The notes under the pieces are model-generated. The model had not been told where the DNA came from. It was given only the letters and a program-made list of their open reading frames with translations, and did not search any database. Positions 9,800 through 64,000 of a DNA stretch of 64,000 bases are shown here, piece after piece. Origin of the DNA: an uncultured Eubacteriales bacterium. GTDB lineage: Bacteria; Acidobacteriota; Aminicenantia; Aminicenantales; UBA8522. Each line of letters starts with the position of its first letter. The stretch's first letter is position 1. Position numbers and translations under genes: made by a program. The stretch is taken from contig CAYUKK010000022.1 in the NCBI GenBank assembly GCA_964445305.1, positions 3,174 through 67,173 of the forward strand. The letters run 5' to 3'.

Positions 9800-9915
9800 A
9801 GGACTCTCTCAGTCTTACCCAGCCGCACCGAAAAGCGCGACCAGATTCCCAAGTTTATTCAAGCTGGCGAGATGATGTCAAACCCGGGTTGCCTCATGAG
9901 AAAATGTACCCAATG

Positions 9916-21847: not shown

Positions 21848-21849
21848 AA

Positions 21850-23463
21850 ATGATAAAAGACGAAAAGAAAAAATCGGCCGTCCTCGCTGAGGAGGAAGAA
21901 ACGAGAAAGCTTGCCGAAAGGTACCGCGTGCCTTACATCGACCTATCCACCTTCACGCTCAACCGGGAACTCATTCAGTCTTTTCCGCCCGAATTTCTGT
22001 ACCGGTCCAATTTCATCCCCCTCGAAGAGAAAAATAATCTAATCCAGATCGCCATTGCCGACCCCTCGGACATCGGAACGATCGACGCTATCGAATCTTT
22101 CTTGGGGAAGAAAGTCGAGGTCTATGCCGCTTCCCGGCGTGGTATCCAGGAGGCCCTGCGCCGCAGCGAGACGGCCCTCCAGGTGCTCAAGGAGGCGACG
22201 GAGGGCTTTATTGTCCAGGTCGTAGAGAAGGATGGGGGGGAAGAGGAAGAAGTCATCTCCCTGGAGAAGCTGGCAGACCAGGATGGCTCCATCATCAAGC
22301 TCGTTAACACGATCATATTTACCGCCGTCCAGAAAAGGGCGAGCGATGTCCATGTCGAATCGCGGGAGGACGGTGTGCGCATCAAGTACCGCATCGATGG
22401 CGTTCTCAACGAGGCCATGGAGCCAATCGATAAGAAGTTCCAGTCGCCCATCATTTCCCGCATCAAGGTGATGTCCGACCTCGATATTGCCGAGCGTCGG
22501 GTACCCCAGGACGGGAGGTTTCGGCTCAAAATCAAGGATAAAACCATCGACTTCCGAGTTTCCATCATGCCCAGCATCTACGGTGAGGATGCCGTTATCC
22601 GGATTCTCGACAAGGAGATGATTACCGAGGCCATTTCCGAGCTGAGGTTAGACCTGCTCGGCTTCTCGGAAGAAGTGCTCCGCAAGTTCCGGCGATACAT
22701 CACCCAGCCCTATGGCATGATTTTGGTGACCGGTCCAACCGGTAGCGGGAAGACGACAACCCTCTATGCGGCTCTGACCGAGATCAAATCGCCTGAGGAC
22801 AAAATCATCACCATTGAAGACCCCGTCGAGTACCAAATCGAGGGTATAACCCAGATTCCTGTCAACGAAAAAAAGGGGCTCACCTTCGCCCGGGGGTTGA
22901 GGTCCATCCTCCGGCATGACCCGGACAAGATTATGGTCGGCGAAATCCGCGACCCGGAGACAGCTCAAATCGCCATCCAGTCCGCGCTGACCGGGCACCT
23001 TGTTTTTACCACCGTTCACGCCAACAATGTCTTTGATGTCATCGGTCGTTTTCTTCATATGCAGGTCGACCCCTACAGCTTCATTTCGGCCTTGAATTGC
23101 ATCTTAGCCCAGCGCCTGGTGCGAGTACTCTGTCCGAAGTGCAAGGTGGCCGTGAAATACTCGGCGGCTGAGCTCCTCGAATCTGGCCTGGACCCCACTT
23201 TTTACCGGGACCAAGCTTTTTATGAGGCCCGCGGTTGTCCGCACTGTGGGCAGACTGGCTATCGGGGGCGCACGGCTATTGCCGAGCTGCTCGAACTGAG
23301 CGACATCATCCGGGAAATGATCTTGGCTCGGAAGCCTCTCTCGGAGGTGAAGAAGAGAGCCAAAGAAGAGGGCATTGTCTTCCTCCGAGAGGTCGGGCTC
23401 GACAAGGTGCTGCGGGGGATCACCAGCTTGAAGGAATTAAATAAGGTCACCTTTGTCGAGTGA
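21850..23463 (+). CDS. pilB: type IV pilus assembly ATPase (GspE/PilB family)
   Basis: GspE-N domain. Walker A VTGPTGSGKTTTLYA. Asp box and Walker B ..IMVGEIRD. Tetracysteine CPKC...CPHC. 537 aa. Confidence 0.9.
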   Translation: MIKDEKKKSAVLAEEEETRKLAERYRVPYIDLSTFTLNRELIQSFPPEFLYRSNFIPLEEKNNLIQIAIADPSDIGTIDAIESFLGKKVEVYAASRRGIQEALRRSETALQVLKEATEGFIVQVVEKDGGEEEEVISLEKLADQDGSIIKLVNTIIFTAVQKRASDVHVESREDGVRIKYRIDGVLNEAMEPIDKKFQSPIISRIKVMSDLDIAERRVPQDGRFRLKIKDKTIDFRVSIMPSIYGEDAVIRILDKEMITEAISELRLDLLGFSEEVLRKFRRYITQPYGMILVTGPTGSGKTTTLYAALTEIKSPEDKIITIEDPVEYQIEGITQIPVNEKKGLTFARGLRSILRHDPDKIMVGEIRDPETAQIAIQSALTGHLVFTTVHANNVFDVIGRFLHMQVDPYSFISALNCILAQRLVRVLCPKCKVAVKYSAAELLESGLDPTFYRDQAFYEARGCPHCGQTGYRGRTAIAELLELSDIIREMILARKPLSEVKKRAKEEGIVFLREVGLDKVLRGITSLKELNKVTFVE

Positions 23464-23469
23464 AGAAAC

Positions 23470-24432
23470 ATGGAATTAAGCTCTGCGCCGACTCGGGCCT
23501 CATTCGGACAGAAACTTAAGGGCTTCTTTACCGCTCCCCCTTGCCCCGGTGCTGTTTTCCTCATTTCGACAACGGCCGTGAGCGCTATCTCCGTCGCGGC
23601 GCGGGAGAAAAAGGTTCGCTCTCATGCGGTTTTACCTCTCCGTCCGGGTCTGGTCGAACCCCATTTTGATAAGAAAAATATCCAGGACCCAGTCGCCTTG
23701 GCCGATGCTCTTAAAAGAGAACTGGTCCGATTACATTATGCCGGAGAGAAGGCGGCCTGCTTGCTGCCCGAACCCTGCCTGAGGATATTTGTTTTCTCGT
23801 TTGAATCGCTCCCCATGCCGGAGAAAGAAAGAAGGAAGCTCTTCCTGTGGCGGGCGAAAAAACAGCTGCCTCTCTTGCCCGACGACATCCGCCTGTCCTA
23901 TCAAGTTATGAACGCTGGGACCTCGCCCAGGGTTCTGGTTTCCTTGGCCCGCGCTTCTGTCCTCGATGAGTACGAGAATGTTTTACAAAAGGCTGGGATT
24001 AAAGTTGGCCTCCTGACCACACCGACGCTCAGCCTCCTCAACCTTGTTGATTGGGAAAAAGAAAGAGATTTTCTTCTCGTCAACGTGACTGCGGACTCGA
24101 CGTCACTGGTCGCCGTGAGCGACGGCCTCATCTCCCTCTTCCGGATCAAACCCCACTCTCTTGAGTCGGCGGGGCAGGCCCTGGATCGCTTCAAGGTCGA
24201 AAATGTTATGACGGAAATAGATAATACCATCCATTTCCTGGAGGACCGCGAAAAGCGAACGCTGAGCGCGCTGTGGCTGCATTCTGATTCAGCGGCGCTA
24301 AAGGCGGCGCTTGGTGACGGCCTGAGGGGAAGGTTCTCTTTTCCCGTGAAGGAATTCAACGTCGCTTTCCCCTCGGGTTGCCGGGAGTCGGAGAAAGGTC
24401 TCCTCGTTCCTCTTTTCGGTCAGATGCCATGA
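23470..24432 (+). CDS. pilM: PilM-like actin-fold pilus assembly protein
   Basis: Position (after pilB, before pilN, start 24429 overlapping the pilM stop at ATGA) and PilM-like N-terminal pattern. 320 aa. Start uncertain. Confidence 0.6.
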   Translation: MELSSAPTRASFGQKLKGFFTAPPCPGAVFLISTTAVSAISVAAREKKVRSHAVLPLRPGLVEPHFDKKNIQDPVALADALKRELVRLHYAGEKAACLLPEPCLRIFVFSFESLPMPEKERRKLFLWRAKKQLPLLPDDIRLSYQVMNAGTSPRVLVSLARASVLDEYENVLQKAGIKVGLLTTPTLSLLNLVDWEKERDFLLVNVTADSTSLVAVSDGLISLFRIKPHSLESAGQALDRFKVENVMTEIDNTIHFLEDREKRTLSALWLHSDSAALKAALGDGLRGRFSFPVKEFNVAFPSGCRESEKGLLVPLFGQMP

Positions 24433-24986
24433 GAAGGATTACGATCAACCTGGCTTCTCATCCCCTTCGCAATCGGAAGTTCTACTTTTTCGTCTTGAGC
24501 TGCCTCGGGCTGGGGGTGGTGGTGACCTTTTTCTTTTCGGCCAGTCTCTTCCTTTTCTATTATCAAAAGGGAAAAGCGGCCAAAGAGTCCCTGGCGGAGG
24601 TCGAGTCTTCGATCCTTCTGGCCCAGAGGGAAGAAAAGAGACTGGCCTCGAAAGTCGAGGACGCCTTCAAGAAGGACAAGGAAAAAGTCGACCTGATGAA
24701 CAGCATCATCCTGAAAAAGAGTTTTCCCTGGAGAGGATTTTTTTCTCTTCTCGAAAATTCCCTTCCCGATTCGAGCTATATCCTCTCCCTGGCGCCTGAT
24801 TTAGTGGACAGCTCTCGCCTCGAGATGCGCTTCAAAGTCGTTTCGCGCCATCTTGATGACCTTCTCCTCTTCCTCAACAACCTTTACCGGATGAATTTCA
24901 AGCAGATCCGGGTCGAAAGCGAAGACCAAAGCTCCCAGGGCCAACTCATCTCAGAGATTTCCCTGAGCTATGAAAGAACTCTTTAG
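24429..24986 (+). CDS. pilN: PilN-like bitopic inner-membrane protein
   Basis: MRRITINLASHPLRNRKFYFFVLSCLGLGVVVTFFF (PilN-type N-terminus plus one TM) followed by a coiled-coil region. ATG overlaps the pilM stop. Confidence 0.55.
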   Translation: MRRITINLASHPLRNRKFYFFVLSCLGLGVVVTFFFSASLFLFYYQKGKAAKESLAEVESSILLAQREEKRLASKVEDAFKKDKEKVDLMNSIILKKSFPWRGFFSLLENSLPDSSYILSLAPDLVDSSRLEMRFKVVSRHLDDLLLFLNNLYRMNFKQIRVESEDQSSQGQLISEISLSYERTL

Positions 24987-25533
24987 CCTCCTTACGGAAA
25001 GCGAGAAGAAGAGACTCCGCTGGGCAGCCATGTTGTTTATTGCCGGCCTGCTTTTCCTTCTCATCATTGGCCTGGGTGAGAGGCGAAGCTTCTTCAGCCT
25101 GGAACATCGTCTCCAGGCCAGGAAGAAAGTGTTGACCGAGGTCGAAGAGAAGCGAGCCAAAGCGGCGGCGGAATGGGCCAGATGGCAAGCCTCCTACCAA
25201 GACATGGAGGAGCTCGAAAAAACGTACTTTTATCGAGGCCTGAATGACCTCCACCAAATGCGGCTGGATCTGGAAAAAATCATGGCTGAAGCTGGTGTCA
25301 GCGTCAAGGCGTTGAAGTACGATTATTCGCGGTCCAGGAAAGAAAAAATCGATAAAATCAACATCAATTTTAATTTCGTCGGTTCTTACGTTATCTTAAA
25401 GAAATTTTTGGAGGTTGTGGAGAAGTTTCCCAAATTCCTGATGTTGGAAAAGGTCGATTTCGCCCGGATTGCTGGGGATGGAAGCATCCTCGAACTTCGG
25501 ATTGTCCTGGCGGGATATTATGAAGAGCAGTAA
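24970..25533 (+). CDS. pilO: PilO-like bitopic inner-membrane protein
   Basis: Single TM (AAMLFIAGLLFLLIIGL) followed by a coiled-coil/periplasmic domain. Gene order M-N-O. Confidence 0.5.
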   Translation: MKELFSLLTESEKKRLRWAAMLFIAGLLFLLIIGLGERRSFFSLEHRLQARKKVLTEVEEKRAKAAAEWARWQASYQDMEELEKTYFYRGLNDLHQMRLDLEKIMAEAGVSVKALKYDYSRSRKEKIDKININFNFVGSYVILKKFLEVVEKFPKFLMLEKVDFARIAGDGSILELRIVLAGYYEEQ

Positions 25534-26029
25534 GGCAGTCTTTCTACCCCTGGCTTTTTTTCTCCTCTCCGCCTTCTGGCTGTTTATGGCTGCTCAGGAA
25601 AAAACTGGACAGACTCCTGCCTCGGAAAAAGAAGGCGAAAGCCTGATCCGGAAAGAGCTGCTTCGTCAAACCAGCCCGGAGGGTGAACTCCCCAAGCGGA
25701 ACATCTTCTCCCCCCGGTCTTCGTCGGGGCCCTTTGTTTCCTCGCTGGCCCAGGTGACCGGCCCAGGGCAGGTCGGCCTCAGCCCGAGCGAGGAAATCTC
25801 CGGGGAAAAAACCAGCCCGCCCCAATTTTCTTTGGCCCTTCGCTATATCGGCTATATCGAGTCGGCTCGTCGAACCATCGCTCTCATCTTCCTGGATGGC
25901 CAAGCCCAGGCTGTGGCGGAAGGAGAAGTCATCCGGGAGGGAATTCGGGTCGGGAGGATTACCCCGGCGGAAATCGAGGTTATTTTTCCCGACTCGACGA
26001 CCAAGAAATTTTCCCTAGAAGGAGAATGA
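25520..26029 (+). CDS. pilP: PilP-like lipoprotein/periplasmic pilot protein
   Basis: Signal peptide MKSSKAVFLPLAFFLLSAFWLF. C-terminal beta-rich ...RTIALIFLDGQAQAVAEGEVI.EGIRVGRITPAEIEV is PilP-like. The ORF opens at 25469. Confidence 0.45.
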   Translation: MKSSKAVFLPLAFFLLSAFWLFMAAQEKTGQTPASEKEGESLIRKELLRQTSPEGELPKRNIFSPRSSSGPFVSSLAQVTGPGQVGLSPSEEISGEKTSPPQFSLALRYIGYIESARRTIALIFLDGQAQAVAEGEVIREGIRVGRITPAEIEVIFPDSTTKKFSLEGE

Positions 26030-28185
26030 GGATGCGGAACATCAAGGGCATACTCGTTGTCTTTGCCTTTACTTTCTGGGGATGCGTAAGCTTTGGCTCC
26101 TATTATTATAAGCTCGGCATCCGCGCCGAGATGAACAAGAACTGGGACGAGGCTATCGCCCATTATGAAAGGGCGCTCCAGGAGAGCCCCCATGTGTATG
26201 CCTACAAGGTGGCCTTGGCTCGAGCCAAGTTTTCCGCCAGTCTTTTTCAAATCCAGGAGGCCCGGCGACTGGCCGCCCAGGGAGACAGGGAGGGTGCCCG
26301 CAAAGCTTATGAGAAGGCTCTCTCTTACGACCCGCGCAACCGGGCCACAGCGGAGGAGATGCGCCGTTTCCTCCAGGAGCAAACTCAGGAAGAAAAGCCG
26401 AAGACGGAGAGACTCGAGTCTCCGGTGAAGCTCAAGGTTCCGCCGGAGAAGATTGAGCTCAAGTTCACGGAAGCCAGCCTGCGCTCGATTTTTCAGGCCC
26501 TGGCCAAGCACGCCCGGGTGAACATCCTGTTCGACGAATTGTTCAAGGACACGCCCATGACGATTGACCTTACGGGAAAGGAGTTCGAAGAAGCCATCAG
26601 CTTCCTCTGTCTGGCCAGCAAGAATTTCTATCGGGTGATCGATGAAGCAACGCTCATCATTGTTCCTGACCAACCCGTCAAGCGAATCCAGTATGAGCAA
26701 AACGCCGTCAAGGTTTTCTACCTTTCCAACCTCAACGCCCAGGATGTCCTGGCCGCTCTCACCCAGATGCTCCGGAGCCAATACCGGGCGCCCAACATCT
26801 TCGTCGACAAAAACCTCAACACGGTGACGATCCGGGATACGCCGGTCAATATCGAGCTGGCCGCGGACCTCATCCGCAAATGGGACAAACCCAAGGGGGA
26901 AGTGGTCATTGACTTGGAAATCATGGAAGTGTCCCGGCAAAAATTGCGGGAGATCGGCCTTGACTTGGACCAGGCCATGGTTGGGGTACGCTATGCCGGG
27001 CCTGGAGCTACGGATACAGAAGGTTGGTACAACCTTGGCGAAATCGACCTCGGACCAAGCACGAGTTACCAGATTTCCTTGCCCTCGGCCCTGATTCGTT
27101 TCCTCGAATCTGATGCCGATACGCGGATTCTGGCTCAGCCCAGGCTGAGGGGAGTGGCGGACGAGGAAATCAAGACATTGGTCGGGCAAAGGGTTCCCAT
27201 CCCCCAGACTACCTTCACGCCCATCGCCGCGGGCGGAATCAGCCAGCAGCCTGTGACCTCATTCACCTTTGAGGAGGTCGGCCTCGACATCAAGATCAAG
27301 CCGCGGGTTCATCTGGAGAAGGAAGTGACCCTGGAGATCGAGCTCAAAATCCGGTCCATTGCCGGGACCGGTTACGCCAACCTGCCCATCATTTCGACTC
27401 GAGAGATCAAGAACACGATTCGCTTGAAAGATGGGGAGACAAACCTCCTCGCCGGGTTGCTTCGGGACGAGGAGAGAAAGACGATGCGCGGCATCACCGG
27501 GCTAAAAAACATCCCTGTTCTGGGCTATCTTTTTGCTGCCACTGACCAGACCATCGAACAGTCGGACGTCATCCTGACCATCACACCCTACATCATCCGC
27601 AGCGTTCCCCGAACAGCCGAGGACGATCGGCCTGTCTGGATTCCGCTCGAAGGGGTGGCTGGGGCCGGCAGGGTAGAGAGGGAAATGGGGGAGCCGATGC
27701 TGGTCACCCCAGACATGCTCCCCGGGTTGGGTCGGCAGGAAGAGGTGATGCCTGAAGCTCGGCCTGAAGCGGCCGGGGAAAACGTCATCACCCTTGACCC
27801 GGCCAGTTTTGAGATTCCGCGGGGGCGGGAATTTCGCCTCAGCGTTAACATTCGCTCTCAGCAGGAGATTGGCAGTTTTTCCCTGAACTTGAGTTTTAAC
27901 CCTCAAGTGGTCAAGCTCAAGGACGTTCTTGAGGGGGGATTCGTGCGGCAATTGGGAGATAAGGTGCCTTTCCTCAAGAGTGTGGCTGAGGGAAGCTGCA
28001 CTCTGGGTTTCTCCAGTCCTCAGCCGAGCCGGGGATTCCGCGGCGGCGGGAACCTGGCTGTTCTCGTTTTCGATGCTGCAGCGCAGGGAGAGACATCTAT
28101 CCGGGTGGTCGGAGTCACGGCCAATGCGCCCACAGGCGCGCCCATCCGTTTCGTCAGTCGAGAATCGCAGGTCATCGTCCGGTAA
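26026..28185 (+). CDS. pilQ: secretin (PilQ/GspD family) with N-terminal TPR region and a C-terminal cohesin-like beta-sandwich extension
   Basis: Secretin_N and secretin domains (..ILTITPYIIRSV). N-terminal TPR-like (YKLGIRAEMNKNWDEAIAHYERAL...). C-terminal ~150 aa FRLSVNIRSQQEIGSFSLNLSFNPQVVKLKDV...GNLAVLVFDAAAQGETSIRVVGV resembles cohesin domains. Confidence 0.8.
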   Translation: MRMRNIKGILVVFAFTFWGCVSFGSYYYKLGIRAEMNKNWDEAIAHYERALQESPHVYAYKVALARAKFSASLFQIQEARRLAAQGDREGARKAYEKALSYDPRNRATAEEMRRFLQEQTQEEKPKTERLESPVKLKVPPEKIELKFTEASLRSIFQALAKHARVNILFDELFKDTPMTIDLTGKEFEEAISFLCLASKNFYRVIDEATLIIVPDQPVKRIQYEQNAVKVFYLSNLNAQDVLAALTQMLRSQYRAPNIFVDKNLNTVTIRDTPVNIELAADLIRKWDKPKGEVVIDLEIMEVSRQKLREIGLDLDQAMVGVRYAGPGATDTEGWYNLGEIDLGPSTSYQISLPSALIRFLESDADTRILAQPRLRGVADEEIKTLVGQRVPIPQTTFTPIAAGGISQQPVTSFTFEEVGLDIKIKPRVHLEKEVTLEIELKIRSIAGTGYANLPIISTREIKNTIRLKDGETNLLAGLLRDEERKTMRGITGLKNIPVLGYLFAATDQTIEQSDVILTITPYIIRSVPRTAEDDRPVWIPLEGVAGAGRVEREMGEPMLVTPDMLPGLGRQEEVMPEARPEAAGENVITLDPASFEIPRGREFRLSVNIRSQQEIGSFSLNLSFNPQVVKLKDVLEGGFVRQLGDKVPFLKSVAEGSCTLGFSSPQPSRGFRGGGNLAVLVFDAAAQGETSIRVVGVTANAPTGAPIRFVSRESQVIVR

Positions 28186-52198: not shown

Positions 52199-54096
52199 TT
52201 CTCGCGCCAGATTTCAAAGACGAGCAAGGCCCAGAGCTGGTGGCTGAAGTTTTTCCGGCCGCCAAGATGAGCGTGGATCATCTTTTGGATGGCTTCAGGC
52301 CGGAAGAGCCCGCCGCTCCGGATTCTCCTTTCACTGAGATAGTCGAGCATCATGTCCTTCAGTTCTTCCCTCAACCAGTGCTTGATGGGGATACTGAACC
52401 CCTCTTTGGGTCGATAGATATTTTCGCGCGGCAAGAGCCTTTCCATCGTCTTCTTGAACACCCATTTGGTCTCGAGCCCATTGAGTTTGAAACGACCGGG
52501 AAGACGGAAGGCAAACTCGACGAGCTCATGGTCGAGGAGAGGCTCTCTGGCTTCGAGCGATGTGGCCATGCTCATGCGGTCGACTTTGACCATGATGTCG
52601 TCGGGCAAATAAGCCTTCAAATCCAGGTAGAGCTCGGCGTTCGTCGCGTCGAAAGCAGGGAGGGCGGCGAAGATTTCGCGGAAAGGGGAAAGGTGATGGA
52701 TTTCTTCGATGCCCCCCAGCCCCTCGAGCGCTCTTTTGAGGTCTTCTCCGTAGAGATGGTCCTTCTCCATGGGTGAAAGAAACGTCATCCAGCGGAGGTG
52801 GCGGAGCTCCGCGTTCTGCTCCAGGCCAAGGAGGAATCTCTGGAGCTTATTCCAGAAACCTTTCTTCTTGCCCGATGGCGGAAATCGGTTGACAAGAGAG
52901 GAGAGAGGCCGACCCAAGGCTCGCCCGGCCGGCGAAGCAGCGATTTTTTGGGCCTGGTAGTGTTCGTAGCCGCCGAAGATTTCATCGCCGCCATCTCCAG
53001 ACAGGATGACCTTGACGCGGGAGCGAGCCATTTGGCTAACCAGATAGGTGGGGAAAATGGAAAAATCGCCAAAGGGTTCGTCGATATGGCGGATGAGCTT
53101 TTCGGTGAGCTCGAGGGCCTTTGGCTTGATGATAAATTCTTCGTGTTCTGTGCCGAATGCCTCGGCTACGCGCCGGGCGTACTTGAGCTCGTTATAGGAG
53201 ACCTCCTCAAAGCCGATGGAGAAGGTCTTGAGGGGAGAGGCACCGAGTTCGCGCATCAAGCCTACGATGGCCGAGGAATCGATTCCGCCGCTGAGGAAGG
53301 CACCGAGCGGGACGTCGCTGATGAGCCTCAGCCGGACGGATTCTTTGAGCCGATGGTAGAGCTCATCCATGACCGAGGGCACATCTTTGGCTTCCCGAGG
53401 AGATAGAGAGTCGGATGACGGGGTTATGTCCCAATATTTTTTTATCTCGACGCGTCCGTTTTGATAGAGCAAATAGCTTCCGGCCGGAAGCTTGTGGACG
53501 TCCTTTAAAATGCTGTGCGGAGCAGGGATGTATTCGAGGGTTAAGTAGAGGTCAAGGGCCCGCGGGTTGAGAGCGCGCCGAACCCCGGGATGGGCGATGA
53601 CGGCTTTGAGCTCGGAGCCGAAGACGAGGCTTCCCTCATCGAGGCGAGTGTAGTAGAGGGGCTTGACACCGAGCCTGTCCCTTACCAGAAGGAGCTTGCC
53701 CTCCCGTCCGTCCCAGAGGGCAAAAGCGAACATCCCCCTCAGTTTGTGGACAAATTCCTGTCCCCATTCCTCATAGCTATGGACAATAGTCTCTGTGTCT
53801 GTCCGCGTTTTGAAGACATGGCCCCGCTCGATGAGCTCTTGGCGCAACGCCGGGAAGTTGTAAATTTCGCCGTTGTGAGCAACCCAGATGGTTTTGTCCT
53901 CATTGGCCAGGGGTTGATGGCCGCCTTCGATGTCGATGATGCTCAATCGCCGAGCGCCCAGGCCGATTCCACTGGCCGTGAAGATTCCTTCATCGTCTGG
54001 ACCGCGATGGACAATCGTCTGGCACATGGAGGCCAGCAGTGATGCCCGGACAGTCTCAGCCAGGGAAGTCGTGGCCAGGCCGCAGATACCGCACAT
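52189..54096 (-). CDS. asnB: asparagine synthetase (glutamine-hydrolysing), AsnB family
   Basis: N-terminal MCGI nucleophile Cys. Ntn-type glutaminase domain. PP-loop SGGIDSS. 635 aa. Confidence 0.9.
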   Translation of the reverse strand: MCGICGLATTSLAETVRASLLASMCQTIVHRGPDDEGIFTASGIGLGARRLSIIDIEGGHQPLANEDKTIWVAHNGEIYNFPALRQELIERGHVFKTRTDTETIVHSYEEWGQEFVHKLRGMFAFALWDGREGKLLLVRDRLGVKPLYYTRLDEGSLVFGSELKAVIAHPGVRRALNPRALDLYLTLEYIPAPHSILKDVHKLPAGSYLLYQNGRVEIKKYWDITPSSDSLSPREAKDVPSVMDELYHRLKESVRLRLISDVPLGAFLSGGIDSSAIVGLMRELGASPLKTFSIGFEEVSYNELKYARRVAEAFGTEHEEFIIKPKALELTEKLIRHIDEPFGDFSIFPTYLVSQMARSRVKVILSGDGGDEIFGGYEHYQAQKIAASPAGRALGRPLSSLVNRFPPSGKKKGFWNKLQRFLLGLEQNAELRHLRWMTFLSPMEKDHLYGEDLKRALEGLGGIEEIHHLSPFREIFAALPAFDATNAELYLDLKAYLPDDIMVKVDRMSMATSLEAREPLLDHELVEFAFRLPGRFKLNGLETKWVFKKTMERLLPRENIYRPKEGFSIPIKHWLREELKDMMLDYLSERRIRSGGLFRPEAIQKMIHAHLGGRKNFSHQLWALLVFEIWRENYL

Positions 54097-55946
54097 TATT
54101 CACGCGGGATGAGGTCGAGCTCGAAAAAAACACCCAGGTACCGCCTTTCCAGGCTTTTCTGGTTCTCATAATAGGGAATAGACCCCTTAGACGCCTTGAT
54201 TTTCATTCGATAATGGTAGCGGTCCTCCATCTTGAACCCGTTTCCGACCAGAAAGCGGAGTTCCCCCCGCTGGTTTGGCTGGAGAACGATTTTTTTCGTT
54301 CGCCCTTCCACCCTGACCCTGATTTCGTTGTTGCTGCGGGGGTTGTTGAGCAGCCGCACCCCGATTTCACGCAGCGGATAGTAGGTTTTCAGGATGAACT
54401 CACACGTCCGCGCCCCTCGCGTCCAGATGCCGTTGGGTTCGAGCCGCGGGTAGAAGTTGTCGTCGAGGAAATGGAGGAATTCCCGAGCGGGGTGGGGCTT
54501 ATCCGGCCAGATGTGGACGCGGAAGGCGTCAGGGTTCGTGTTGGTGGGAAGGTTATTGACCTGGGTCATTTCGACAGGCAGGATTTTAATCGGAAATTTC
54601 TTGGCATGGGTGGCCGGTCGAGCCGAGGAGCGGAAGGGACTGATGAGGATGGGCGAGATAAAGATAGCGGCCATAACCCAGCAAGCGACCATGGCCCGCC
54701 ATGTTTTTCTCGCCGGTGGAAGGAAAAGGAAGAGAGGGTAAATATTGAGGAAATAACGGTTAGCCAGGGACCCGCCGCCACCGCCGTAGTTATCGGGCAT
54801 GAGAACGATATAAATGAGGATTCCGGCCGCGGCGGTTGCCAGGACTATCCAGTCGAGAAACCCCCGCCGCCGCCAAAAAAAGAGGAGCAAGGCGAGGAAA
54901 GCAGGGAAGTAGTACCAAGTAATACCCGTGTATCGACCGAAGAAATAATAAAAGATGTTGAAGAAAATGAATTGGGCCGGAAGGAGGAATTCTTGAAAAT
55001 AGCCCTCCGAGGTCATGGTGTGGCCGAGATTATCGAACGTGGATTCCTCTTTTTCGAGGGGAAAGGTGAAAAAGAAAGTCTTCCTCTCGCCGCCCTGGTA
55101 GTTCCATTCCGAGGTGAGGAGATAGTTGGCGCCGAAAAAGAGGCTGGCGCTCAGGATGAAAACGAGCATGAGGAGGCACGCCTTGAGGATTTTCTGGCGA
55201 GCGAGGGCGGCGATGGTGAGCGGCAGAATGAGGACGATGTTGGGGGGTTTGGAAAAGGCAGCCAGCCCGGCCAGGAAAGCCGCTCCATAATCTGTGGCCG
55301 GGGAGAGGAGGAAGCGTGGCGGCGAAAGACTTGGGCTGGCTTCGGCCGCTGCTTCGCGCCATTTTATTTTGTAAAGCCACAGAAAGATGATGCTCAAGAC
55401 GAGGCTGAAGTTGAAAAAGTCGGGGGAAATCCAGAGAAAATAGACTCCAGCCACAGAAGCACCGAGGAAGGTTAAAAAATACAGGACGGCGGTTAGGCGA
55501 GAGTTAGCGAGGGAGAGGTAAGCCCGGGCCATGAGCATGACGAGGAGAAGGAGAAGGGCGTGGAATACCAAGAAGCCGTTGTAGCCAAAAAGCCGAACAA
55601 AAGGAGCGGCAAACAAAGGGTAAGCCCAGGATTTGGCGTAGAAAAGCCGTCCATCTTTAACCTTCTTCAAGAACAACCCTTGCGGTCCAGCCGTAAAATC
55701 CTGGTAGTACCGGACGAGGTCTTTCTTCGTGTATTCTAAATCTCCATCGTGGGCGATACTTTGGGTCATGGCGTAATAGACGGCCTGATCAGCGAAAAGG
55801 AAGTGGTCATGGATGACGGGCAGGTTGATAAAAAGGGAGAAGCCGAGGGCAAAGAAAAAAACAAGGAAAATAACCCAGCCGCTTGACGTTCTATCGTCGG
55901 GCATCGTCGATGTCCGTCCTATGACCAATATCACAGTTGGACACAA
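54096..55946 (-). CDS. large polytopic membrane protein, glycosyltransferase-C fold-like (ArnT/PMT-like)
   Basis: 616 aa with >12 hydrophobic helices. N-terminal loop with an acidic motif (ADQAVYYAMTQSIAHDGDLEY) as in GT-C enzymes. Weak family assignment. Confidence 0.45.
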   Translation of the reverse strand: MCPTVILVIGRTSTMPDDRTSSGWVIFLVFFFALGFSLFINLPVIHDHFLFADQAVYYAMTQSIAHDGDLEYTKKDLVRYYQDFTAGPQGLFLKKVKDGRLFYAKSWAYPLFAAPFVRLFGYNGFLVFHALLLLLVMLMARAYLSLANSRLTAVLYFLTFLGASVAGVYFLWISPDFFNFSLVLSIIFLWLYKIKWREAAAEASPSLSPPRFLLSPATDYGAAFLAGLAAFSKPPNIVLILPLTIAALARQKILKACLLMLVFILSASLFFGANYLLTSEWNYQGGERKTFFFTFPLEKEESTFDNLGHTMTSEGYFQEFLLPAQFIFFNIFYYFFGRYTGITWYYFPAFLALLLFFWRRRGFLDWIVLATAAAGILIYIVLMPDNYGGGGGSLANRYFLNIYPLFLFLPPARKTWRAMVACWVMAAIFISPILISPFRSSARPATHAKKFPIKILPVEMTQVNNLPTNTNPDAFRVHIWPDKPHPAREFLHFLDDNFYPRLEPNGIWTRGARTCEFILKTYYPLREIGVRLLNNPRSNNEIRVRVEGRTKKIVLQPNQRGELRFLVGNGFKMEDRYHYRMKIKASKGSIPYYENQKSLERRYLGVFFELDLIPRE

Positions 55947-56118: not shown

Positions 56119-56883
56119 CTACCGCCTGTAGAGGCTCAGGTAGGCCTGGATGATTTTGTCACCCCAGAGGAAGGAGAAAAAGGCGGCTGGCGCGAGAAAG
56201 GTGCCAAAGGGAAGAGAGTACTGGAAAGTTTTTTTCCGGATGTAGACGAGAAAAAGGCCGACCAGAGAACCAACCAAGCTGGCGATGATGAGCGTGAAAA
56301 CGGCCTTCGTCCAGCCAAGATAAGCCCCGATGAGGAGCATCATCGTGATATCGCCCAGACCCATACCCTCTTTTTTCCGGAGCACAAAGTAGCCGACATA
56401 GATGGCAAGGAGGAGGGAGGCGCCAACGACAGCGCCGACGAGTGATTGGCGAAAGGTGAGGTCATCTCTAAACAGGGAATAGACAATGGCCAGCCCAAGA
56501 CCAGGCAGAGTGATTTCATCGGGCAGGATTTGATGGAAATAATCGATAAACCCGAGAGCGATGAGGGCGCTCACGAAAAGGCAGGAGGCGAAGAAATGAA
56601 GACGCCAGGAATACTGAGCATGGAGGATGAGAAAGCTCAGCGCGGTGAGGAGCTCGACGAGGGGATAGCTTGGGGAAATCGGACCGCCGCAGGCTCGGCA
56701 TCGGCCGCGCAGGAGAAGATAGGAGAGGAGGGGGATGTTGTCGTAGAATTTGATCCGACTGCCGCAGCGAGGGCAGGCGGAGGGAGGATGGACCAGGCTC
56801 ATGTTCCGGGGAAGACGATAGATGACGACGTTGAGGAAGCTTCCCCAGGCCAGGCCGAAAAGAAAGAGGATTACTTCTTCCAC
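56119..56883 (-). CDS. pilD: type IV prepilin leader peptidase (A24 family)
   Basis: GSFLNVVIYRLP...CPRCGSRI..YDNIPLLSYLLLRGRCRACGGPI tetracysteine motif plus conserved PilD TM pattern. The ORF is open to 57144 with no ATG; GTG at 56883 just before the conserved core is the proposed start (uncertain). Confidence 0.7.
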   Translation of the reverse strand: MEEVILFLFGLAWGSFLNVVIYRLPRNMSLVHPPSACPRCGSRIKFYDNIPLLSYLLLRGRCRACGGPISPSYPLVELLTALSFLILHAQYSWRLHFFASCLFVSALIALGFIDYFHQILPDEITLPGLGLAIVYSLFRDDLTFRQSLVGAVVGASLLLAIYVGYFVLRKKEGMGLGDITMMLLIGAYLGWTKAVFTLIIASLVGSLVGLFLVYIRKKTFQYSLPFGTFLAPAAFFSFLWGDKIIQAYLSLYRR

Positions 56884-57740
56884 CAGATTTTCGGAGGTCC
56901 GACTTCTCCTTTTTCCGGGTTGTAGAGATAATCGTCGCCATCGAGGTCCTTGGGCAGCGAGGACAGCAGCCGAAACTTGACGAGCTCGGCAAGCTCTTGA
57001 GGATAGCGGCCGAAGCGCTGCTTGAAGCGGGCTATTGCATCCTCGAGAATCTTTATATCCATGGCTGCCTTGACCCGGTAAAGATGCCGGCTGGCGATTT
57101 CTTTGACGCGCGGATCGGTGGCCGTCGCGTAGATTTCTTGCCATGTCTCCCAGGCGGTCTCAAGGTCCATCACTTTGAAACTGGCCGCCGCATAGAGCCG
57201 CTTGGCGATGTCGGGTGCACCCGGTATCTTCATCGTCTTTTCGTAGTATCGGCGAGCTAAATCGAAATCCTTGGCCATCTGGGCGTAGTGTCCGGCCTGG
57301 AAGGGAAAAATCCACTGGTCCGGGTTTTTGGCCAGACCCAAATCGAGAATCTTAAGGCCGAGCTCAAGGTTTCTTGCTTCGTAGATGGCAATCAGGGCTC
57401 CCACCTCGTAGGGGTCCTGATACCGAGGGTCGAGCTCAGCGATGACGGAGAAGATGTGGTCGAGGTATTGATACCGGTCGACAATCGTGTAGGTGCTGTA
57501 ATACTGGATGGCCCAGAGGTAGATCAAGTCGGCCGCGAGCGAGGGGAAGCCGAAGGTGATGTATTTCAGGTATTTGCCCGACGGAAGGTAGATGACTGAG
57601 GCGCCCGGGATTTTCTGGCGGGGGATGGTGTTGATGGTCATTTTTAGCGAAACGATGCTTGCCAGGAGAAGAAAAAGCGCCAGCCCAGAAGAAATGGAGG
57701 CCAGCCCGCGGCGGTGAGAAAAGGAAGGAAGCGAGTTCAT
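56871..57740 (-). CDS. membrane-anchored TPR-repeat protein
   Basis: N-terminal TM (LALFLLLASIVSL) followed by TPR-like repeats. 289 aa. Stop overlaps the proposed pilD start region. Confidence 0.55.
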   Translation of the reverse strand: MNSLPSFSHRRGLASISSGLALFLLLASIVSLKMTINTIPRQKIPGASVIYLPSGKYLKYITFGFPSLAADLIYLWAIQYYSTYTIVDRYQYLDHIFSVIAELDPRYQDPYEVGALIAIYEARNLELGLKILDLGLAKNPDQWIFPFQAGHYAQMAKDFDLARRYYEKTMKIPGAPDIAKRLYAAASFKVMDLETAWETWQEIYATATDPRVKEIASRHLYRVKAAMDIKILEDAIARFKQRFGRYPQELAELVKFRLLSSLPKDLDGDDYLYNPEKGEVGPPKIWWKK

Positions 57741-59494: not shown

Positions 59495-60055
59495 CTAGTC
59501 GGGGACGACGTGCCGGAGGGTACTCTGATCGATAGTAATGTAGAAATCGCTCCCTAAATAAAGAAGCGGCCTGACCTGGCGGGGATTGAGAATCCCTTCG
59601 GCGTTGAAGGAGCCCGGTTCTTCATGGATGGCCAGGACCTCGCCGACAAAAAGGTCGTGGTCGCCGTAAGGCCTGACTTCGGCCAGCCGGCATTCGAAGG
59701 AAGCGTAAGCTTCCTCCACGATGGGCGATTGGATGACCTTGCCCGGCGCCAATCGAAGCGCGAACTCCTTGACCTTGTCCATGTCATGACCGGATTTGCG
59801 GCCCATCTGGGCGGAGAGTTTCACTTTTTCGTAATTGATGAAGTTCACGGTAAACTCTTTGGCCCGGATGATCACCCCATGGGTGAAGCGCTTCTTGGAA
59901 ATGAGGACGCCGAAAAGCGGTGGGTCAAAGGAGAGAGCGGTGTGCCATGCACAGCTCATGAAGTTGGTTTGACCCTGGGCCGTGGCTCCCACGATCGACA
60001 CCGTATAAGGGTAAAAATATTGAAAATGTTTGATTTGGGTTTTGACCGTCTTCAT
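59495..60055 (-). CDS. flavin reductase-like (FMN-binding split-barrel) protein
   Basis: PYTVSIVGATAQGQTNFMSCAWHTALSFDPPLFGVLI is the flavin_reduct family pattern. 186 aa. Confidence 0.75.
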   Translation of the reverse strand: MKTVKTQIKHFQYFYPYTVSIVGATAQGQTNFMSCAWHTALSFDPPLFGVLISKKRFTHGVIIRAKEFTVNFINYEKVKLSAQMGRKSGHDMDKVKEFALRLAPGKVIQSPIVEEAYASFECRLAEVRPYGDHDLFVGEVLAIHEEPGSFNAEGILNPRQVRPLLYLGSDFYITIDQSTLRHVVPD

Positions 60056-60091: not shown

Positions 60092-61072
60092 TTACCCAAG
60101 CCCCTTGATTTTTCGGGCATTCTTGAGCAGCCACTCCTGAGTAAAGAGATGCTCCTTGTTGAGGCCGAGATGGAGGTTAACCTGGTCCCTGATCTCGCCT
60201 GGGGGTAGCAGGCGAAGAAGCTTTTCGTAAGCGCTGATGAGCTCTCTTTCAGCCGGGATGAGCGTTTCCAGGGCTGAGATGCGGTCATGGCCGGGGTAGA
60301 CGGAGGGCATCGGGCTTGTGCTCTTTTCTGCGCCCGCCTCATCCCGGACGGCGTTTTCGATGCGGATGACACTTCCCAGCTTGATAAGAAGGCCCGAATT
60401 CTTGTCCCAGTGCCTCATGTGGTCGATGGAATTCTTGAACAGCCGCTGGCTAAGGTCCTGGTGTTCGCTAAAAAGGATGACATATCGAAGATAGCGGTGC
60501 ATGAGCTCGTTTTCCATCCGCATGATGTCATGGAGAAGCTGGACTTCTTCCCGGGCGGCCGCCTCCGGGCTTTCTTCAAAACAGCGAGCTTCCGAGGCTC
60601 CTTCCTTCTCCATCGTCCGGATCATCACCTCGAACTGTTGGGAGTGACGCACCTCATCGTAAGAAATGTTGAGGACCATGTTCTGGATTTTGGGGAAAGC
60701 GCCCTCTGCCCATTGCGCCGATTGATAGAGCTCGGTGACCATGTCCTCGGTCATTTTATCCCGCTTGAGGTTATCAACAAGGCGAGGATAGCGGACGATT
60801 TCATCGGTGCGGAAGGAAGGAACCCCGCCCATCTGGGTGATGATGATGCCGAGCTGCAAGGCGTGGTACATCTCGTCGATTCCAATCTGGATGGTCTGGG
60901 CGCGGACGTCGGTCCGCAAGTTCATGATGGGGTCCTCATAGAAGAACTTGGCCTTGGGCATGGAATAGGCATGGATGGTGTACTCAAAGCTAACGGCCCA
61001 TTCGTGCTCAAGGGCAGTGTTAAGCAGTTGATGAACGTCGCTTTCGGTTTGGATTTTTCCGCTCTTTTCCAT
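60092..61072 (-). CDS. ferritin-like superfamily diiron-carboxylate protein (two ferritin-like halves)
   Basis: Repeated E..H / E..E motifs (EHEWAVSFEY, DEMYHALQLG, YDEVRHSQQFE, ENELMHRYL, IDHMRHWD). GGAGGAG SD before the ATG at 61072; the ORF extends to 61102. Confidence 0.5.
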   Translation of the reverse strand: MEKSGKIQTESDVHQLLNTALEHEWAVSFEYTIHAYSMPKAKFFYEDPIMNLRTDVRAQTIQIGIDEMYHALQLGIIITQMGGVPSFRTDEIVRYPRLVDNLKRDKMTEDMVTELYQSAQWAEGAFPKIQNMVLNISYDEVRHSQQFEVMIRTMEKEGASEARCFEESPEAAAREEVQLLHDIMRMENELMHRYLRYVILFSEHQDLSQRLFKNSIDHMRHWDKNSGLLIKLGSVIRIENAVRDEAGAEKSTSPMPSVYPGHDRISALETLIPAERELISAYEKLLRLLPPGEIRDQVNLHLGLNKEHLFTQEWLLKNARKIKGLG

Positions 61073-61494
61073 TATAGCTCCTCCGGATATTTTTTTGTCC
61101 ATTATATGCTTCTTCGGAAAATAAGGGAAGCTCAGGGGGATCTTTATTACATTGGTTCATCCCTGAGAATTGCTGTTTCCCTAAGCAGGGGAGGGGAAAC
61201 GGGGGAGAGAAATTCACCCCCAAATCCCTCCCAAGAGGTGATTGTGCTCTCCGTTCAGGCAAGTCAGTATGGTTTTGTCGCAGCCTCAAAGGCTCTACAC
61301 TTTCTCATCCAAGGCGTAGCCGAGGTTGTGAAAAAGGAGAGGGGGCTAAGGTCCCTCTCTCCCCCCACCCCCACCCTCCTTTCGATGGCCTCCTTGAACC
61401 CAGACAATGAGTCAAGGGGGCCATTTTCTTACCGGCTAGGTGTTGCTTTTTCGGTCAAAAAATTATACTAAAAGATGACGGCCGAGGTGCTCGC

Positions 61495-62727
61495 ATGGCC
61501 ATAAGAGAAGACCATCCTGTCCCGCGTTTGAGGACAGACTTGGAAGTGGTCCCCACTTCCTACCAGGGCAAAAGAGCTCTCCTCATCAGGGATGCTCTCG
61601 GCCTCATTCGCCAGCCCGTCATCCTTCAGGGCGAAGCCCTCAGCCTGGTCACGCTCATCGATGGAAAAAAGACAATCCGGGACCTCCAGGTCGAGCTCGT
61701 ACGAGCCAGAAGAGGTATGCTCATCGATTTGGATGACGTCGAAAAAATCATCGACCAGCTGGATTCGGCTTTTCTTCTCCAGAGTCGTCTCTACGAGAGG
61801 GAGAAGGAACGGCTCATCTCTGAATACGCCCAGCTCGCCGTCAGAGAGGCCTCCCACGCTGGCCTTTCCTACCCTGCTTCCGAGCCGGAGTTGCGGCGCT
61901 ATCTCGATTCGATTCTCGAATCTGAAGGGAGGCTGGAACCGGGTCCCGACCGTCCTCCAGATGCGCTCATCTCCCCGCACATTGACCTCGAAGCGGGGAA
62001 AAGGGCCTATGCCTTGGCCTACGGAGCTATCCGGCATCGGCGCTTCGGTCGAGTTTTTCTGCTCGGCACCGGCCACAGCCTTGACGACGGCTTTTACTGC
62101 CTCACCGGAAAAGACTTCCAGACGCCGCTCGGTCTCGTCAAGACTGAAAGAGAAGTGGTCAAGAAACTCAGGAAAGCGGGGGGTGTGGCTATCTCCCGCT
62201 CGGATATATTTCACCGCCGCGAGCATTCCCTCGAGTTCCAAATCCTCTTCCTCCAGCACCTCTTCGGTTCCTCTTTTGTCATCGTCCCCATCCTGTGTGG
62301 CTCCTTTGCGGCCATGCTGGAAAGGGTTTCCCGTCCGTCTCAGCTTGAAGGAGTGGCCGACTTCCTGGCGCAGCTCCGGCGTTGCTGGGAAGAAGAGAGG
62401 GAGGACAGCCTTTTTGTCGCTGGCGTCGATTTTTCCCACATCGGGCCCAAGTTTGGCCACCGCGAACGCGCCGCCTCTCTCCTCCTCGAGGCCCGGCATC
62501 ATGACCAAAAACTGCTCGAGGCGGTTACTCGGGGCGATGTGGAAGCACTCTGGGCGGAGGCGAGGCGAGTGAGAGATAGGTTCAATGTGTGCGGTTTTTC
62601 TGCCCTGGCCGCGCTCCTCGAAGTTCTGCCGGGCGCTCAAGGCCGTGTCTTGGATTACCGCTTCTGGCAGGAGGAGGCGACCCAGTCGGCGGTGAGCTTT
62701 GCGGCTGCAGTCTTGGTCGCTTGTTGA
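61495..62727 (+). CDS. MEMO1-family protein (AmmeMemoRadiSam system protein B-like) with N-terminal PqqD-like domain
   Basis: Residues ~110-410 carry the MEMO1 His/Asp/Cys pattern (ISPHIDLEAG, FLLGTGHS, EHSLEFQI, VAGVDFSHIGPKFGH, NVCGFSAL). Residues ~8-95 (PRLRTDLEVV..ILQGEALSLVTLIDGKKTIRDL..DLDDVEKIIDQL) resemble PqqD-type RiPP recognition elements. Confidence 0.65.
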   Translation: MAIREDHPVPRLRTDLEVVPTSYQGKRALLIRDALGLIRQPVILQGEALSLVTLIDGKKTIRDLQVELVRARRGMLIDLDDVEKIIDQLDSAFLLQSRLYEREKERLISEYAQLAVREASHAGLSYPASEPELRRYLDSILESEGRLEPGPDRPPDALISPHIDLEAGKRAYALAYGAIRHRRFGRVFLLGTGHSLDDGFYCLTGKDFQTPLGLVKTEREVVKKLRKAGGVAISRSDIFHRREHSLEFQILFLQHLFGSSFVIVPILCGSFAAMLERVSRPSQLEGVADFLAQLRRCWEEEREDSLFVAGVDFSHIGPKFGHRERAASLLLEARHHDQKLLEAVTRGDVEALWAEARRVRDRFNVCGFSALAALLEVLPGAQGRVLDYRFWQEEATQSAVSFAAAVLVAC

Positions 62728-62740
62728 AGGAGGGGAGCGG

Positions 62741-63607
62741 ATGACGGATTTCTGGGGAGCGGTAAAAAAAAGCCAGTCCTATGACCTGGCCATCATCGGC
62801 GTGCCATTTGATGAGAAGTCTTGTTTCCTGCGGGGAGCAGCTCTGGGACCAGCCGCCATCCGGGCGGCCTCGACAGGTAAGGCGCTGAACCCCTTCACGG
62901 AACTGGGGGTCAACCTGGAGGAGGAGACTGTCCTTATCGATTGGGGTGATGTGGATACTTCGGGAGACGTGGATAAGACTTTTAGCCGAATTGAAGACGC
63001 GGTCAAGGAAGTCGCAGGCAAGAAGGGCAAGCCGATTGTTCTCGGTGGCGATCACTCCATCACCTATCCAGTGGTGAAAGCTCTGGCGCGGAAATACCGG
63101 CAGCTTTCCATCCTCCATTTTGACGCTCACCCCGACCTTTATGAAGAACTCTACGGGGATCGGTACTCCCACGCCTGTCCTTTTGCCAGAATCATGGAGG
63201 AAGGGCTGGCCAGAGAGCTAGTCCAGGTCGGTATCCGGGCCGCTACCCGAGAGCAGAGGGACAAAGCCCGGCGTCACGGCGTGCGGATGATCGAAATGAA
63301 GGACATGGGGCCGGAGTTGCAGCTGAAATTTGAGTCACCGCTCTATATTTCTTTCGACCTGGATGCTCTGGACCCCGCTTTCGCGCCCGGTGTGAGCCAC
63401 CATGAACCGGGCGGGATGACGATGCGGCAGGCCATCGATATCATCCATTCATTGAGGGCAGAGGTTATCGGCCTGGATGTCGTTGAGCTCAACCCGACCC
63501 GAGACCCGTCCGGAATAACCGCGGCCGCGGCTGTCAAAATCATTAAGGAAGTGGCTGGCCGGATGGTAGGAAAGGATTATCCGTCGTCAAAAAAGCGGTC
63601 CGTCTGA
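62741..63607 (+). CDS. speB: agmatinase/arginase-family ureohydrolase
   Basis: GGAGGGGAG RBS. Mn-binding motifs GGDHSITYPV, HFDAHPD, SFDLDALDP. 288 aa from ATG 62741. Confidence 0.8.
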   Translation: MTDFWGAVKKSQSYDLAIIGVPFDEKSCFLRGAALGPAAIRAASTGKALNPFTELGVNLEEETVLIDWGDVDTSGDVDKTFSRIEDAVKEVAGKKGKPIVLGGDHSITYPVVKALARKYRQLSILHFDAHPDLYEELYGDRYSHACPFARIMEEGLARELVQVGIRAATREQRDKARRHGVRMIEMKDMGPELQLKFESPLYISFDLDALDPAFAPGVSHHEPGGMTMRQAIDIIHSLRAEVIGLDVVELNPTRDPSGITAAAAVKIIKEVAGRMVGKDYPSSKKRSV

Positions 63608-63655: not shown

Positions 63656-64000
63656 GTGGCTAAACGATTTTCTTTTCTTCTTTCTGTCGTTCTTTTGCCG
63701 ATAGTTGTTACGAGCGCGCCGGACGTCGACTTCGACAAGTACTTCATTGACCGGACGATGCGGGTCGATTATTTTCATGTCGGCGATGCGACGAGCGAGT
63801 TCATCACCCTGGATAGAGTTTATGAGCAGGGGAGCTGGGCTGGCAGCCTGAAGAATTTGATCGACCGTCTCAACCTTGGCCGCTACGCCGCCAAGGTTTA
63901 TGATGGGGCTTCGGGAGGGCTCATTTTTTCGCGAGGCTTCGATAGTTATTTCGGCGAATACAAGACAACAGGTCCCGCTCTCAGGGGGGTCAAGCGGACC
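63656..64000 (+). CDS. secreted protein, 3' truncated by window end (possible peptidase-M64-like N-terminal domain)
   Basis: GGGAGG RBS then GTG at 63656. Signal peptide AKRFSFLLSVVLLPIVVTSA. FDKYFIDRTMRVDYFHVGDATSE resembles the M64 peptidase N-domain from memory (weak). Open to the end of the window. Confidence 0.45.
   Translation, partial: MAKRFSFLLSVVLLPIVVTSAPDVDFDKYFIDRTMRVDYFHVGDATSEFITLDRVYEQGSWAGSLKNLIDRLNLGRYAAKVYDGASGGLIFSRGFDSYFGEYKTTGPALRGVKRT

Follow-up and report, generated by a model that had tools for sequence, protein, structure and literature searches.

A PqqD-like domain joined to a Memo metalloprotein domain in Aminicenantes and other bacteria: architecture, distribution, and possible function

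The object of this analysis was a protein encoded in a 64,000-nucleotide stretch of contig CAYUKK010000022.1 (assembly GCA_964445305.1; this whole stretch is hereafter called the window), which belongs to an uncultured bacterium assigned by GTDB to the class Aminicenantia. The 410-aa protein very probably combines an N-terminal PqqD-like domain, of the type known as the RiPP recognition element (RRE; RiPP, peptide made by the ribosome and modified post-translationally), with an intact Memo domain. An initial annotation, made from the sequence alone, had read the gene as a MEMO1-family member with a PqqD-like extension of about 100 aa and had taken this combination as a hint of a RiPP-like reaction. 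That interpretation was partly supported: the coordinates were exact and the identity of the domains was right, but neither the RiPP inference nor the implied novelty was supported. The protein is a further member of a catalogued but functionally uncharacterized family, and we give about an even chance to the view that it is a stand-alone, peptide- or protein-directed metalloenzyme acting by the mechanism proposed below. A protein with 100% identity is recorded in NCBI, JGI, ENA, and Logan. Homologues of similar length (about 410 aa) form more than 120 clusters that span 96%–100% of the fusion protein. Public annotation pipelines label it AmmeMemoRadiSam system protein B. The coordinates of the gene, its domains, the metal-pocket codons, and the neighboring genes are listed in Table 1.

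The phmmer alignment with human MEMO1 (7KQ8 and 3BCZ) begins at about residue 5 of MEMO1, which corresponds to about residue 115 of the query, and residues 1–112 therefore represent a true N-terminal addition. This extension is a conserved domain (hereafter, the N-domain) and not the result of a mis-called start. It is carried by the more than 120 close clusters, as well as by all 54 diverse representatives of the family. Residues R13, D15, E17, G25, D33, G36, P41, G57, R70, G74, and L95 are invariant in 49 relatives, and two of them, R13 and D33, are still invariant across the 54 representatives, which are 27%–51% identical to the query. The N-domain has an N-terminal P-x-L-R motif containing R13, and the "DG" at positions 56 and 57 is nearly invariant. 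Mean pairwise identity within the diverse set was 32.6% for the N-domain and 33.6% for the Memo domain, while the linker was the least conserved part (21.6%). The N-domain and the Memo domain are under equal evolutionary constraint.

The AlphaFold2 (AF2) model of residues 1–118 was obtained with a predicted local distance difference test score (pLDDT) of 92.2. It contains strands at residues 17–23, 26–32, and 42–45, helices at residues 46–52, 61–71, and 79–91, and an extra helix at residues 98–112; the full-length model shows the same secondary-structure elements of the N-domain. This order, three strands and then three helices, is the one used to recognize RREs by Bregman et al. (mSystems, Nov 2025; PMC12710340), who searched the AlphaFold database by Foldseek with RRE structures, including PqqD 5SXY. 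The RRE fold anticipated in the initial annotation is thus present in the model. In a Foldseek search of the PDB with the N-domain, PqqD 5SXY was the first match (probability 1.00, E 8e-3), followed by leader-peptide-bound TbiB1 (5V1V/5V1U, probability 0.97), ThcOx (5LQ4), Rv2067c (8HKR, an RRE reference structure in PMC12710340), TglHI (8HCI), and a second PqqD structure (3G2B). The five best matches are all RRE proteins.

Several results weighed against a relationship with PqqD. None of the Foldseek E-values for the isolated N-domain reached 1e-3, and a Pfam scan found nothing in the N-domain of the query or of 39 relatives, so that of the two Pfam assignments expected initially, Memo PF01875 was found and PqqD PF05402 was not. 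The hidden Markov model (HMM) for PqqD, TIGR03859, matched below threshold, with 13.5 of the required 46 bits (E 0.05). A thin hhalign profile comparison, based on two PqqD sequences, gave a probability of 3.6%; it was superseded by deeper profiles. Since no Foldseek E-value had reached 1e-3, sequence homology was tested directly. A profile search of PDB sequences returned only a weak match (E 0.15) to PaaA chain 5ff5_A, residues 48–95, which we take to be the N-terminal RRE of PaaA. The PqqD comparison set was then composed of the PDB PqqD sequences and 56 PF05402 proteins. The diverse N-domain alignment matched this deep PqqD profile with a probability of 91.6%, an E-value of 8.2e-7, and a score of 40.1, and none of 24 controls (a reversed alignment, 20 column shuffles, and three Memo-domain segments) exceeded a probability of 1.4% or a score of 16.1. 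In the global hhalign alignment, the N-domain was collinear with PqqD across 90 columns, with the P-x-L motif paired and the "DG" turn included, and differed from it by a 6-residue insertion between β2 and β3. Because the AF2 fold, the Foldseek matches, and the deep profile comparison agree, the N-domain is a divergent PqqD/RRE homologue that is detectable by sensitive methods only and missed by curated HMMs. A reading of the extension as a DNA-binding winged helix was rejected, since the high-probability structural matches were RRE proteins and included no DNA-binding winged-helix regulator, and since the PqqD profile match was specific.

The C-terminal part of the protein matched Pfam PF01875 at residues 118–406 over the whole model length (positions 1–269), with 133.9 bits where the cutoff is 27 (E 8.2e-39), and NCBIfam TIGR04336 AmmeMemoSam_B with 108.2 bits against a cutoff of 26. 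Foldseek aligned it with iron-bound MEMO1 (7kq8_A) at an E-value of 3.4e-18, a template modeling (TM) score of 0.81, and 22% identity. The next matches were class III extradiol dioxygenases, namely, aminophenol dioxygenase, LigAB, DOPA dioxygenase, and DesB (TM 0.4–0.6, E 1e-5 to 1e-8), as befits the PCAD/LigB superfamily fold. The metal pocket of MEMO1 consists of His49, His81, Asp189, His192, and Cys244 (PMC9477392), and in the phmmer alignment all five residues are kept as H162, H194, D312, H315, and C366. Among the 54 diverse members, H162 and H194 were present in all, D312 and H315 in 52 each, and C366 in 48. Cys244 of MEMO1 stands where the dioxygenase homologues have Glu (PMC9477392). 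A LigB-type dioxygenase site was rejected, since C366 occupies the position of Cys244 instead of the Glu ligand; judging from the alignment, the pocket is of the Memo His3/Asp/Cys type and not of the LigB dioxygenase type.

The full-length AF2 model had a pLDDT of 96.2 and a predicted TM score (pTM) of 0.93. A value so high for a two-domain chain suggests that the two domains are rigidly packed in a fixed interdomain arrangement. In a Foldseek search of the PDB with the full-length model, the first match outside the LigB superfamily was again PqqD 5SXY (probability 0.99, TM 0.60, root-mean-square deviation 3.1 Å), and no solved structure in the PDB combined both domains.

A search of 1.84 billion representative sequences with an HMM of the N-domain recovered at least 946 clusters at 50% identity, of which 204 matched with an E-value of 1e-10 or better. 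The rarity implied in the initial annotation is at odds with this number and with the spread of the clusters over several phyla. Full-length matches were 385–440 aa long, with the domain at the extreme N-terminus, and PF01875 was present in all 54 diverse representatives. Stand-alone N-domains were considered and rejected: the short matches look like truncated or frameshifted fusions rather than free RREs, because they stop inside the Memo domain or in frameshift-like tails. The N-domain occurs exclusively as a Memo fusion, and this fusion is obligatory and widespread. In species-representative genomes, more than 580 stretches were matched, and the full-length fusion was found in Aminicenantes (including Saccharicenans), many Desulfobacterota, Deferrimicrobiaceae, Planctomycetota, and Fermentibacteria. 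Judging from the names of these lineages, the hosts appear to be anaerobic. Complete chromosomes of Aminicenantes and Desulfobacterota with the gene include OY970261.1, OY969586.1, CP070750.1, and CP070746.1. One full-length homologue with 42% identity (contig DATKXY010000202.1, locus L076, positions 8809–10035) came from a metagenome bin labelled "archaeon"; the contig may be bacterial and mis-binned, or the occurrence in archaea may be real.

The fusion had already been listed by Bregman et al. as Memo_RRE (RREFam044 of RRE-Finder), which runs against the novelty implied earlier. The corresponding HMM has a cutoff of 20 bits and 72% true positives and is based on a sequence-similarity group with 100 or more nodes. 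The authors, who found the fusion by Foldseek with PqqD 5SXY, counted it among high-confidence AlphaFold predictions and called it "unprecedented in RiPPs," with no function or substrate assigned (PMC12710340). Our protein has the same architecture, an RRE followed by PF01875, and the likeness is drawn from this architecture. Since Memo_RRE is catalogued and not characterized, it does not strictly amount to an already characterized MEMO subfamily. The distribution, the conservation of the metal pocket, the absent cluster context, and the lineage-specific linkage with agmatinase are added here to the Memo_RRE entry.

Comparison with better-known systems showed both likenesses and differences. 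The N-domain resembles PqqD (PF05402/TIGR03859; 5SXY and 3G2B) in its N-terminal P-x-L motif and in the "DG" turn that separates helix 1 from helix 2, but it falls below the curated HMM cutoffs, contains the β2–β3 insertion, and has the invariant R13 and D33. It is joined to Memo, whereas PqqD is free-standing or fused to PqqC. Gene neighborhoods were surveyed by clustering the open reading frames (ORFs) within about 7 kb of the fusion at 75 loci, comprising 36 Aminicenantes-type loci and 39 others, 34 of which were deltaproteobacterial; small ORFs were sought at 76 loci. Neither a PqqA-like peptide nor a PqqE radical SAM gene, as would accompany PqqD, was found near the fusion at these 75–76 loci. 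Human MEMO1 (3BCZ, 7KQ8, and 7L5C) has the same fold and the same His, His, Asp, His, Cys pocket, but it is a single-domain protein of 297 aa without an N-terminal RRE and acts in eukaryotic signaling and metal homeostasis. The Memo domain also matches AmmeMemoRadiSam protein B (TIGR04336), which is typically about 270 aa long and lacks an N-terminal domain, but the AMMECR1 and radical SAM partners of that system were not found in the scanned ORFs of the window and did not recur beside the homologues. PaaA (5FF5), ThcOx (5LQ4), and TglHI (8HCI), the next-best structural or sequence matches of the N-domain, have an RRE-type domain together with a catalytic domain or partner enzyme acting on the bound peptide. 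Their genes share a biosynthetic cluster with that of the precursor peptide, whereas no precursor or cluster is evident beside the fusion.

By analogy with such enzymes, the fusion may be viewed as a two-domain metalloprotein consisting of an RRE fold (residues ~8–97), a connecting helix (98–112), and the Memo domain (117–406). In this view, an extended peptide would add a strand to the N-domain next to β3 and α3, and neighboring residues of that peptide would be held at the Memo metal center for a metal-dependent modification. The substrate would more likely be a peptide or protein terminus encoded elsewhere, that is, a cellular target, than a clustered natural-product precursor, because the fusion is a single gene in housekeeping surroundings, and no precursor, protease, transporter, radical SAM, or AMMECR1 gene is conserved beside it in any lineage. 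Ring cleavage of the O2-dependent LigB type is unlikely chemistry, since the hosts appear to be anaerobic. An ErbB2 phosphopeptide has been reported as a ligand of the MEMO1 pocket (Qiu 2008, cited in PMC9477392). The independent classification of a Memo-fused RRE family by Bregman et al. also speaks for this view.

Other observations speak against a peptide-directed enzyme. No peptide partner was identified, and neither the window nor the 75 related loci gave a pointer to the substrate. The conserved P-x-L-R segment forms a β-bridge in both AF2 models and could itself fill the β3/α3 groove of the N-domain. We know of no Memo protein for which an enzymatic activity, substrate, or reaction has been established, and the PCAD-Memo superfamily survey of Burroughs et al. 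(2019) reportedly tied Memo gene contexts to the modification of nucleotide bases or isoprenoids, not peptides. Finally, MEMO1 may merely bind metal (PMC9477392). The even chance stated above applies to the enzyme together with its proposed mechanism. The more specific proposal that the fusion is a conserved stand-alone post-translational modification enzyme of anaerobes, in which the PqqD-like domain selects the target and the Memo center modifies it, is advanced tentatively and is, on balance, doubtful.

The main rival explanation, which we consider unlikely but serious, is that the N-domain is an RRE by descent and no longer recruits a substrate. Its role would then be to cap the Memo pocket structurally or regulate it, or to dock onto a partner encoded elsewhere, possibly a distal radical SAM or AMMECR1 protein of the AmmeMemoRadiSam system, comparable to PqqD on PqqE; indeed, besides PqqA, PqqD also binds PqqE. 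This explanation is favored by the invariant R13 and D33 and by the apparently rigid packing of the domains. The high pTM suggests a fixed intramolecular interface rather than a flexible recruitment module. Invariant charged residues are not usual in leader-binding RREs, and R13 and D33 could belong to the interface or the active site. That no precursor is encoded nearby also fits, as does the name AmmeMemoRadiSam protein B given by TIGR04336. However, this name is not evidence for an AmmeMemoRadiSam system, because the 26-bit cutoff is passed by any Memo protein. In agreement with the initial annotation, neither PF01871 (AMMECR1) nor PF04055 (Radical_SAM) was found in the scanned ORFs of the 64-kb window (roughly 115 aa or longer), and no radical SAM or AMMECR1 gene recurred in the neighbor survey. 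The sole recurrent ORF with a CxxxCxxC motif, present at two loci, was lipoyl synthase. A literature search found no paper on the function of AmmeMemoRadiSam. Moreover, a pure structural cap need not keep the full PqqD-collinear RRE topology across several phyla.

It is considerably less probable that the fusion is a true RiPP maturase with a precursor that is encoded far away or is too short or variable to recognize, although most characterized RRE fusions act in RiPP pathways, and Memo_RRE is listed among the novel fusions of RRE-Finder. About 40% of the RREs in the same survey likewise lacked a known RiPP protein nearby (PMC12710340). The search for small ORFs (18–110 aa, within 2.5 kb of the fusion, 76 loci) revealed no conserved candidate, even among closely related Aminicenantes, and the recurrent small ORFs were rejected as precursors since all of them were shadow frames of neighboring genes. 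The upstream intergenic region of the window (61103–61494, 392 bp) contained no credible ORF and no Rfam family. Across phyla, no protease, transporter, or second tailoring enzyme was conserved among the surveyed neighbors, and no neighbor cluster of any kind was common. Thus, the search for homologous fusions and their surroundings suggested by the initial annotation yielded many fusions but neither a precursor peptide nor a radical SAM neighbor, and the hint of a RiPP-like reaction gained no support from genomic context. The recurrent neighbors in Desulfobacterota, lipoyl synthase (LipA), MobA, FdhD, methionine aminopeptidase (Map), and an HDAC-type deacetylase, share no common theme, and the neighbors outside Aminicenantes are housekeeping genes unrelated to one another. 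Biosynthetic clusters typically have a patchy distribution, whereas the fusion keeps a stable syntenic place in housekeeping surroundings.

The same intergenic region is unusually long for a divergent gene pair and gave a weak RNA-fold signal (z = −2.08). It contains complementary G-rich and C-rich tracts, for example, 61201–61210 with 61356–61365 and 61333–61345 with 61370–61382.

The initial annotation also pointed to a diiron/flavin reductase pair and agmatinase as neighbors. These genes are present, but their linkage with the fusion proved to be lineage specific. The agmatinase gene lies 13 nt downstream of the fusion, and no terminator-like site was found between the fusion, agmatinase, and peptidase M64 genes; judging from this arrangement, the fusion and agmatinase are probably co-transcribed. 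Agmatinase occupied the +1 position at 26 of the 36 Aminicenantes-type loci, overlapping the fusion by 4 bp at one of them (L006). Among the 39 other loci, it was found near the fusion only once, at position −3 of a deltaproteobacterial locus (1 of 34). Peptidase M64, the ferritin-like protein, and flavin reductase were confined to Aminicenantes, and all 20 hmmsearch matches to M64 among neighboring ORFs fell in Aminicenantes-type loci. The complete M64 gene, seen at loci L001–L004, encodes 490 aa. HMMs built from agmatinase, M64, and the HDAC-type neighbor confirmed these lineage limits at the level of remote homology. The linkage of agmatinase and the ferritin-like/flavin reductase genes with the fusion is synteny confined to Aminicenantes. 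Even there, the diiron/flavin reductase pair is not a fixed partner, because the divergent upstream neighbor (60092–61072 in the window; L005, 6810–7883; L007, 6700–7800) is either a ferritin-like protein or a metallophosphoesterase.

An HDAC-type deacetylase (PF00850, E 1e-82) is encoded directly upstream of the fusion at two loci (L043, 1322–2428; L069, 8339–9463). Both are deltaproteobacterial and belong to the 39 non-Aminicenantes loci, and two cases do not allow an interpretation. HDACs and agmatinase belong to one fold superfamily, that of arginase.

In addition to agmatinase, the window encodes an S-adenosylmethionine (SAM) decarboxylase (12543–12986, forward strand; AdoMet_dc, E 4e-40). 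The presence of this enzyme together with a bona fide agmatinase suggests an ordinary route from arginine via agmatine to putrescine and spermidine in the host, and the agmatinase beside the fusion may therefore be regarded as a housekeeping enzyme. A functional unit of the fusion and agmatinase, acting in guanidino or polyamine metabolism or on peptidyl-arginine, is very improbable: the short terminator-free gap, the 4-bp overlap in L006, the frequent +1 agmatinase even where upstream genes differ, and the HDAC-type deacetylases of the two deltaproteobacterial loci speak for it, but the linkage is lost outside Aminicenantes (agmatinase at 1 and HDAC at 2 of the 39 loci), the TIGR01230 equivalog score fits an ordinary SpeB, the SAM decarboxylase fits routine polyamine synthesis, and common descent is enough to account for synteny in a single lineage. 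The agmatinase link is best explained as such lineage-specific synteny and is not established as a functional partnership.

Table 1. Positions of the fusion gene, its parts, and its neighbors in the window
Feature	Position	Strand	Remarks
Flavin reductase	59495–60055	−	
Ferritin-like protein, two-lobed	60092–61072	−	weak PF00210 match only
Shine-Dalgarno-like hexamer GAGGTG	61484–61489	+	5 nt 5' of ATG; direct sequence reading
PqqD-like/Memo fusion ORF	61495–62727	+	complete, 410 aa plus stop
PqqD/RRE-like domain	61516–61785	+	residues 8–97
Linker region	61786–61842	+	residues 98–116; includes helix 98–112 (both AF2 models)
Memo (LigB-superfamily) domain	61843–62712	+	residues 117–406
H162 codon	61978–61980	+	MEMO1 His49, metal pocket; phmmer alignment to 7kq8/3bcz
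H194 codon	62074–62076	+	MEMO1 His81; phmmer alignment
D312-F-S-H315 codons	62428–62439	+	MEMO1 Asp189 and His192; phmmer alignment
C366 codon	62590–62592	+	MEMO1 Cys244; phmmer alignment
Agmatinase	62741–63607	+	288 aa; PF00491 E 6e-78; TIGR01230 219 bits, cutoff 174
Peptidase M64, 5' part	63656–64000	+	M64_N E 1.4e-26; leaves the window; third gene of apparent operon

The rest of the window has a housekeeping character, with genes for glutamine synthetase, the SAM decarboxylase, a two-component system, aldehyde:ferredoxin oxidoreductase, and LUD/CCG proteins, as well as a class I (Trp/Tyr-type) tRNA synthetase, PolX, LigA, PFK, Nramp, TilS, and AsnB. A cluster resembling type IV pilus or type II secretion systems (T2SS) is located at 20636–28185 on the forward strand and comprises T2SSF, T2SSE, three ORFs without a Pfam match, and a secretin; in the latter, TPR repeats are unusually combined with a C-terminal Cohesin domain. 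An A24 prepilin peptidase is encoded 28 kb away from this cluster (56119–57144, reverse strand). A membrane protein of about 602–616 aa without a Pfam match (54096–55946, reverse strand) is encoded directly downstream of the AsnB-like gene, and this pair is kept in three related Aminicenantes contigs (L001, L005, and L006).

The value of these observations is limited by the fact that the fusion was catalogued in 2025, and its architecture is no longer surprising to a specialist. Memo proteins are conserved from bacteria to humans, where they have been linked to cancer-cell migration. The obligatory RRE fusion, equally constrained across several phyla, provides circumstantial support for peptides as the targets of at least one Memo clade, which would echo the disputed phosphopeptide binding of MEMO1. 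In practical terms, the RRE N-domain could serve as bait in identifying the ligand. If the fusion is indeed a peptide-directed modification enzyme, it would provide the first direct evidence of Memo domains as peptide-directed catalysts and would open the biochemistry of MEMO1 and the AmmeMemoRadiSam system to experiment.

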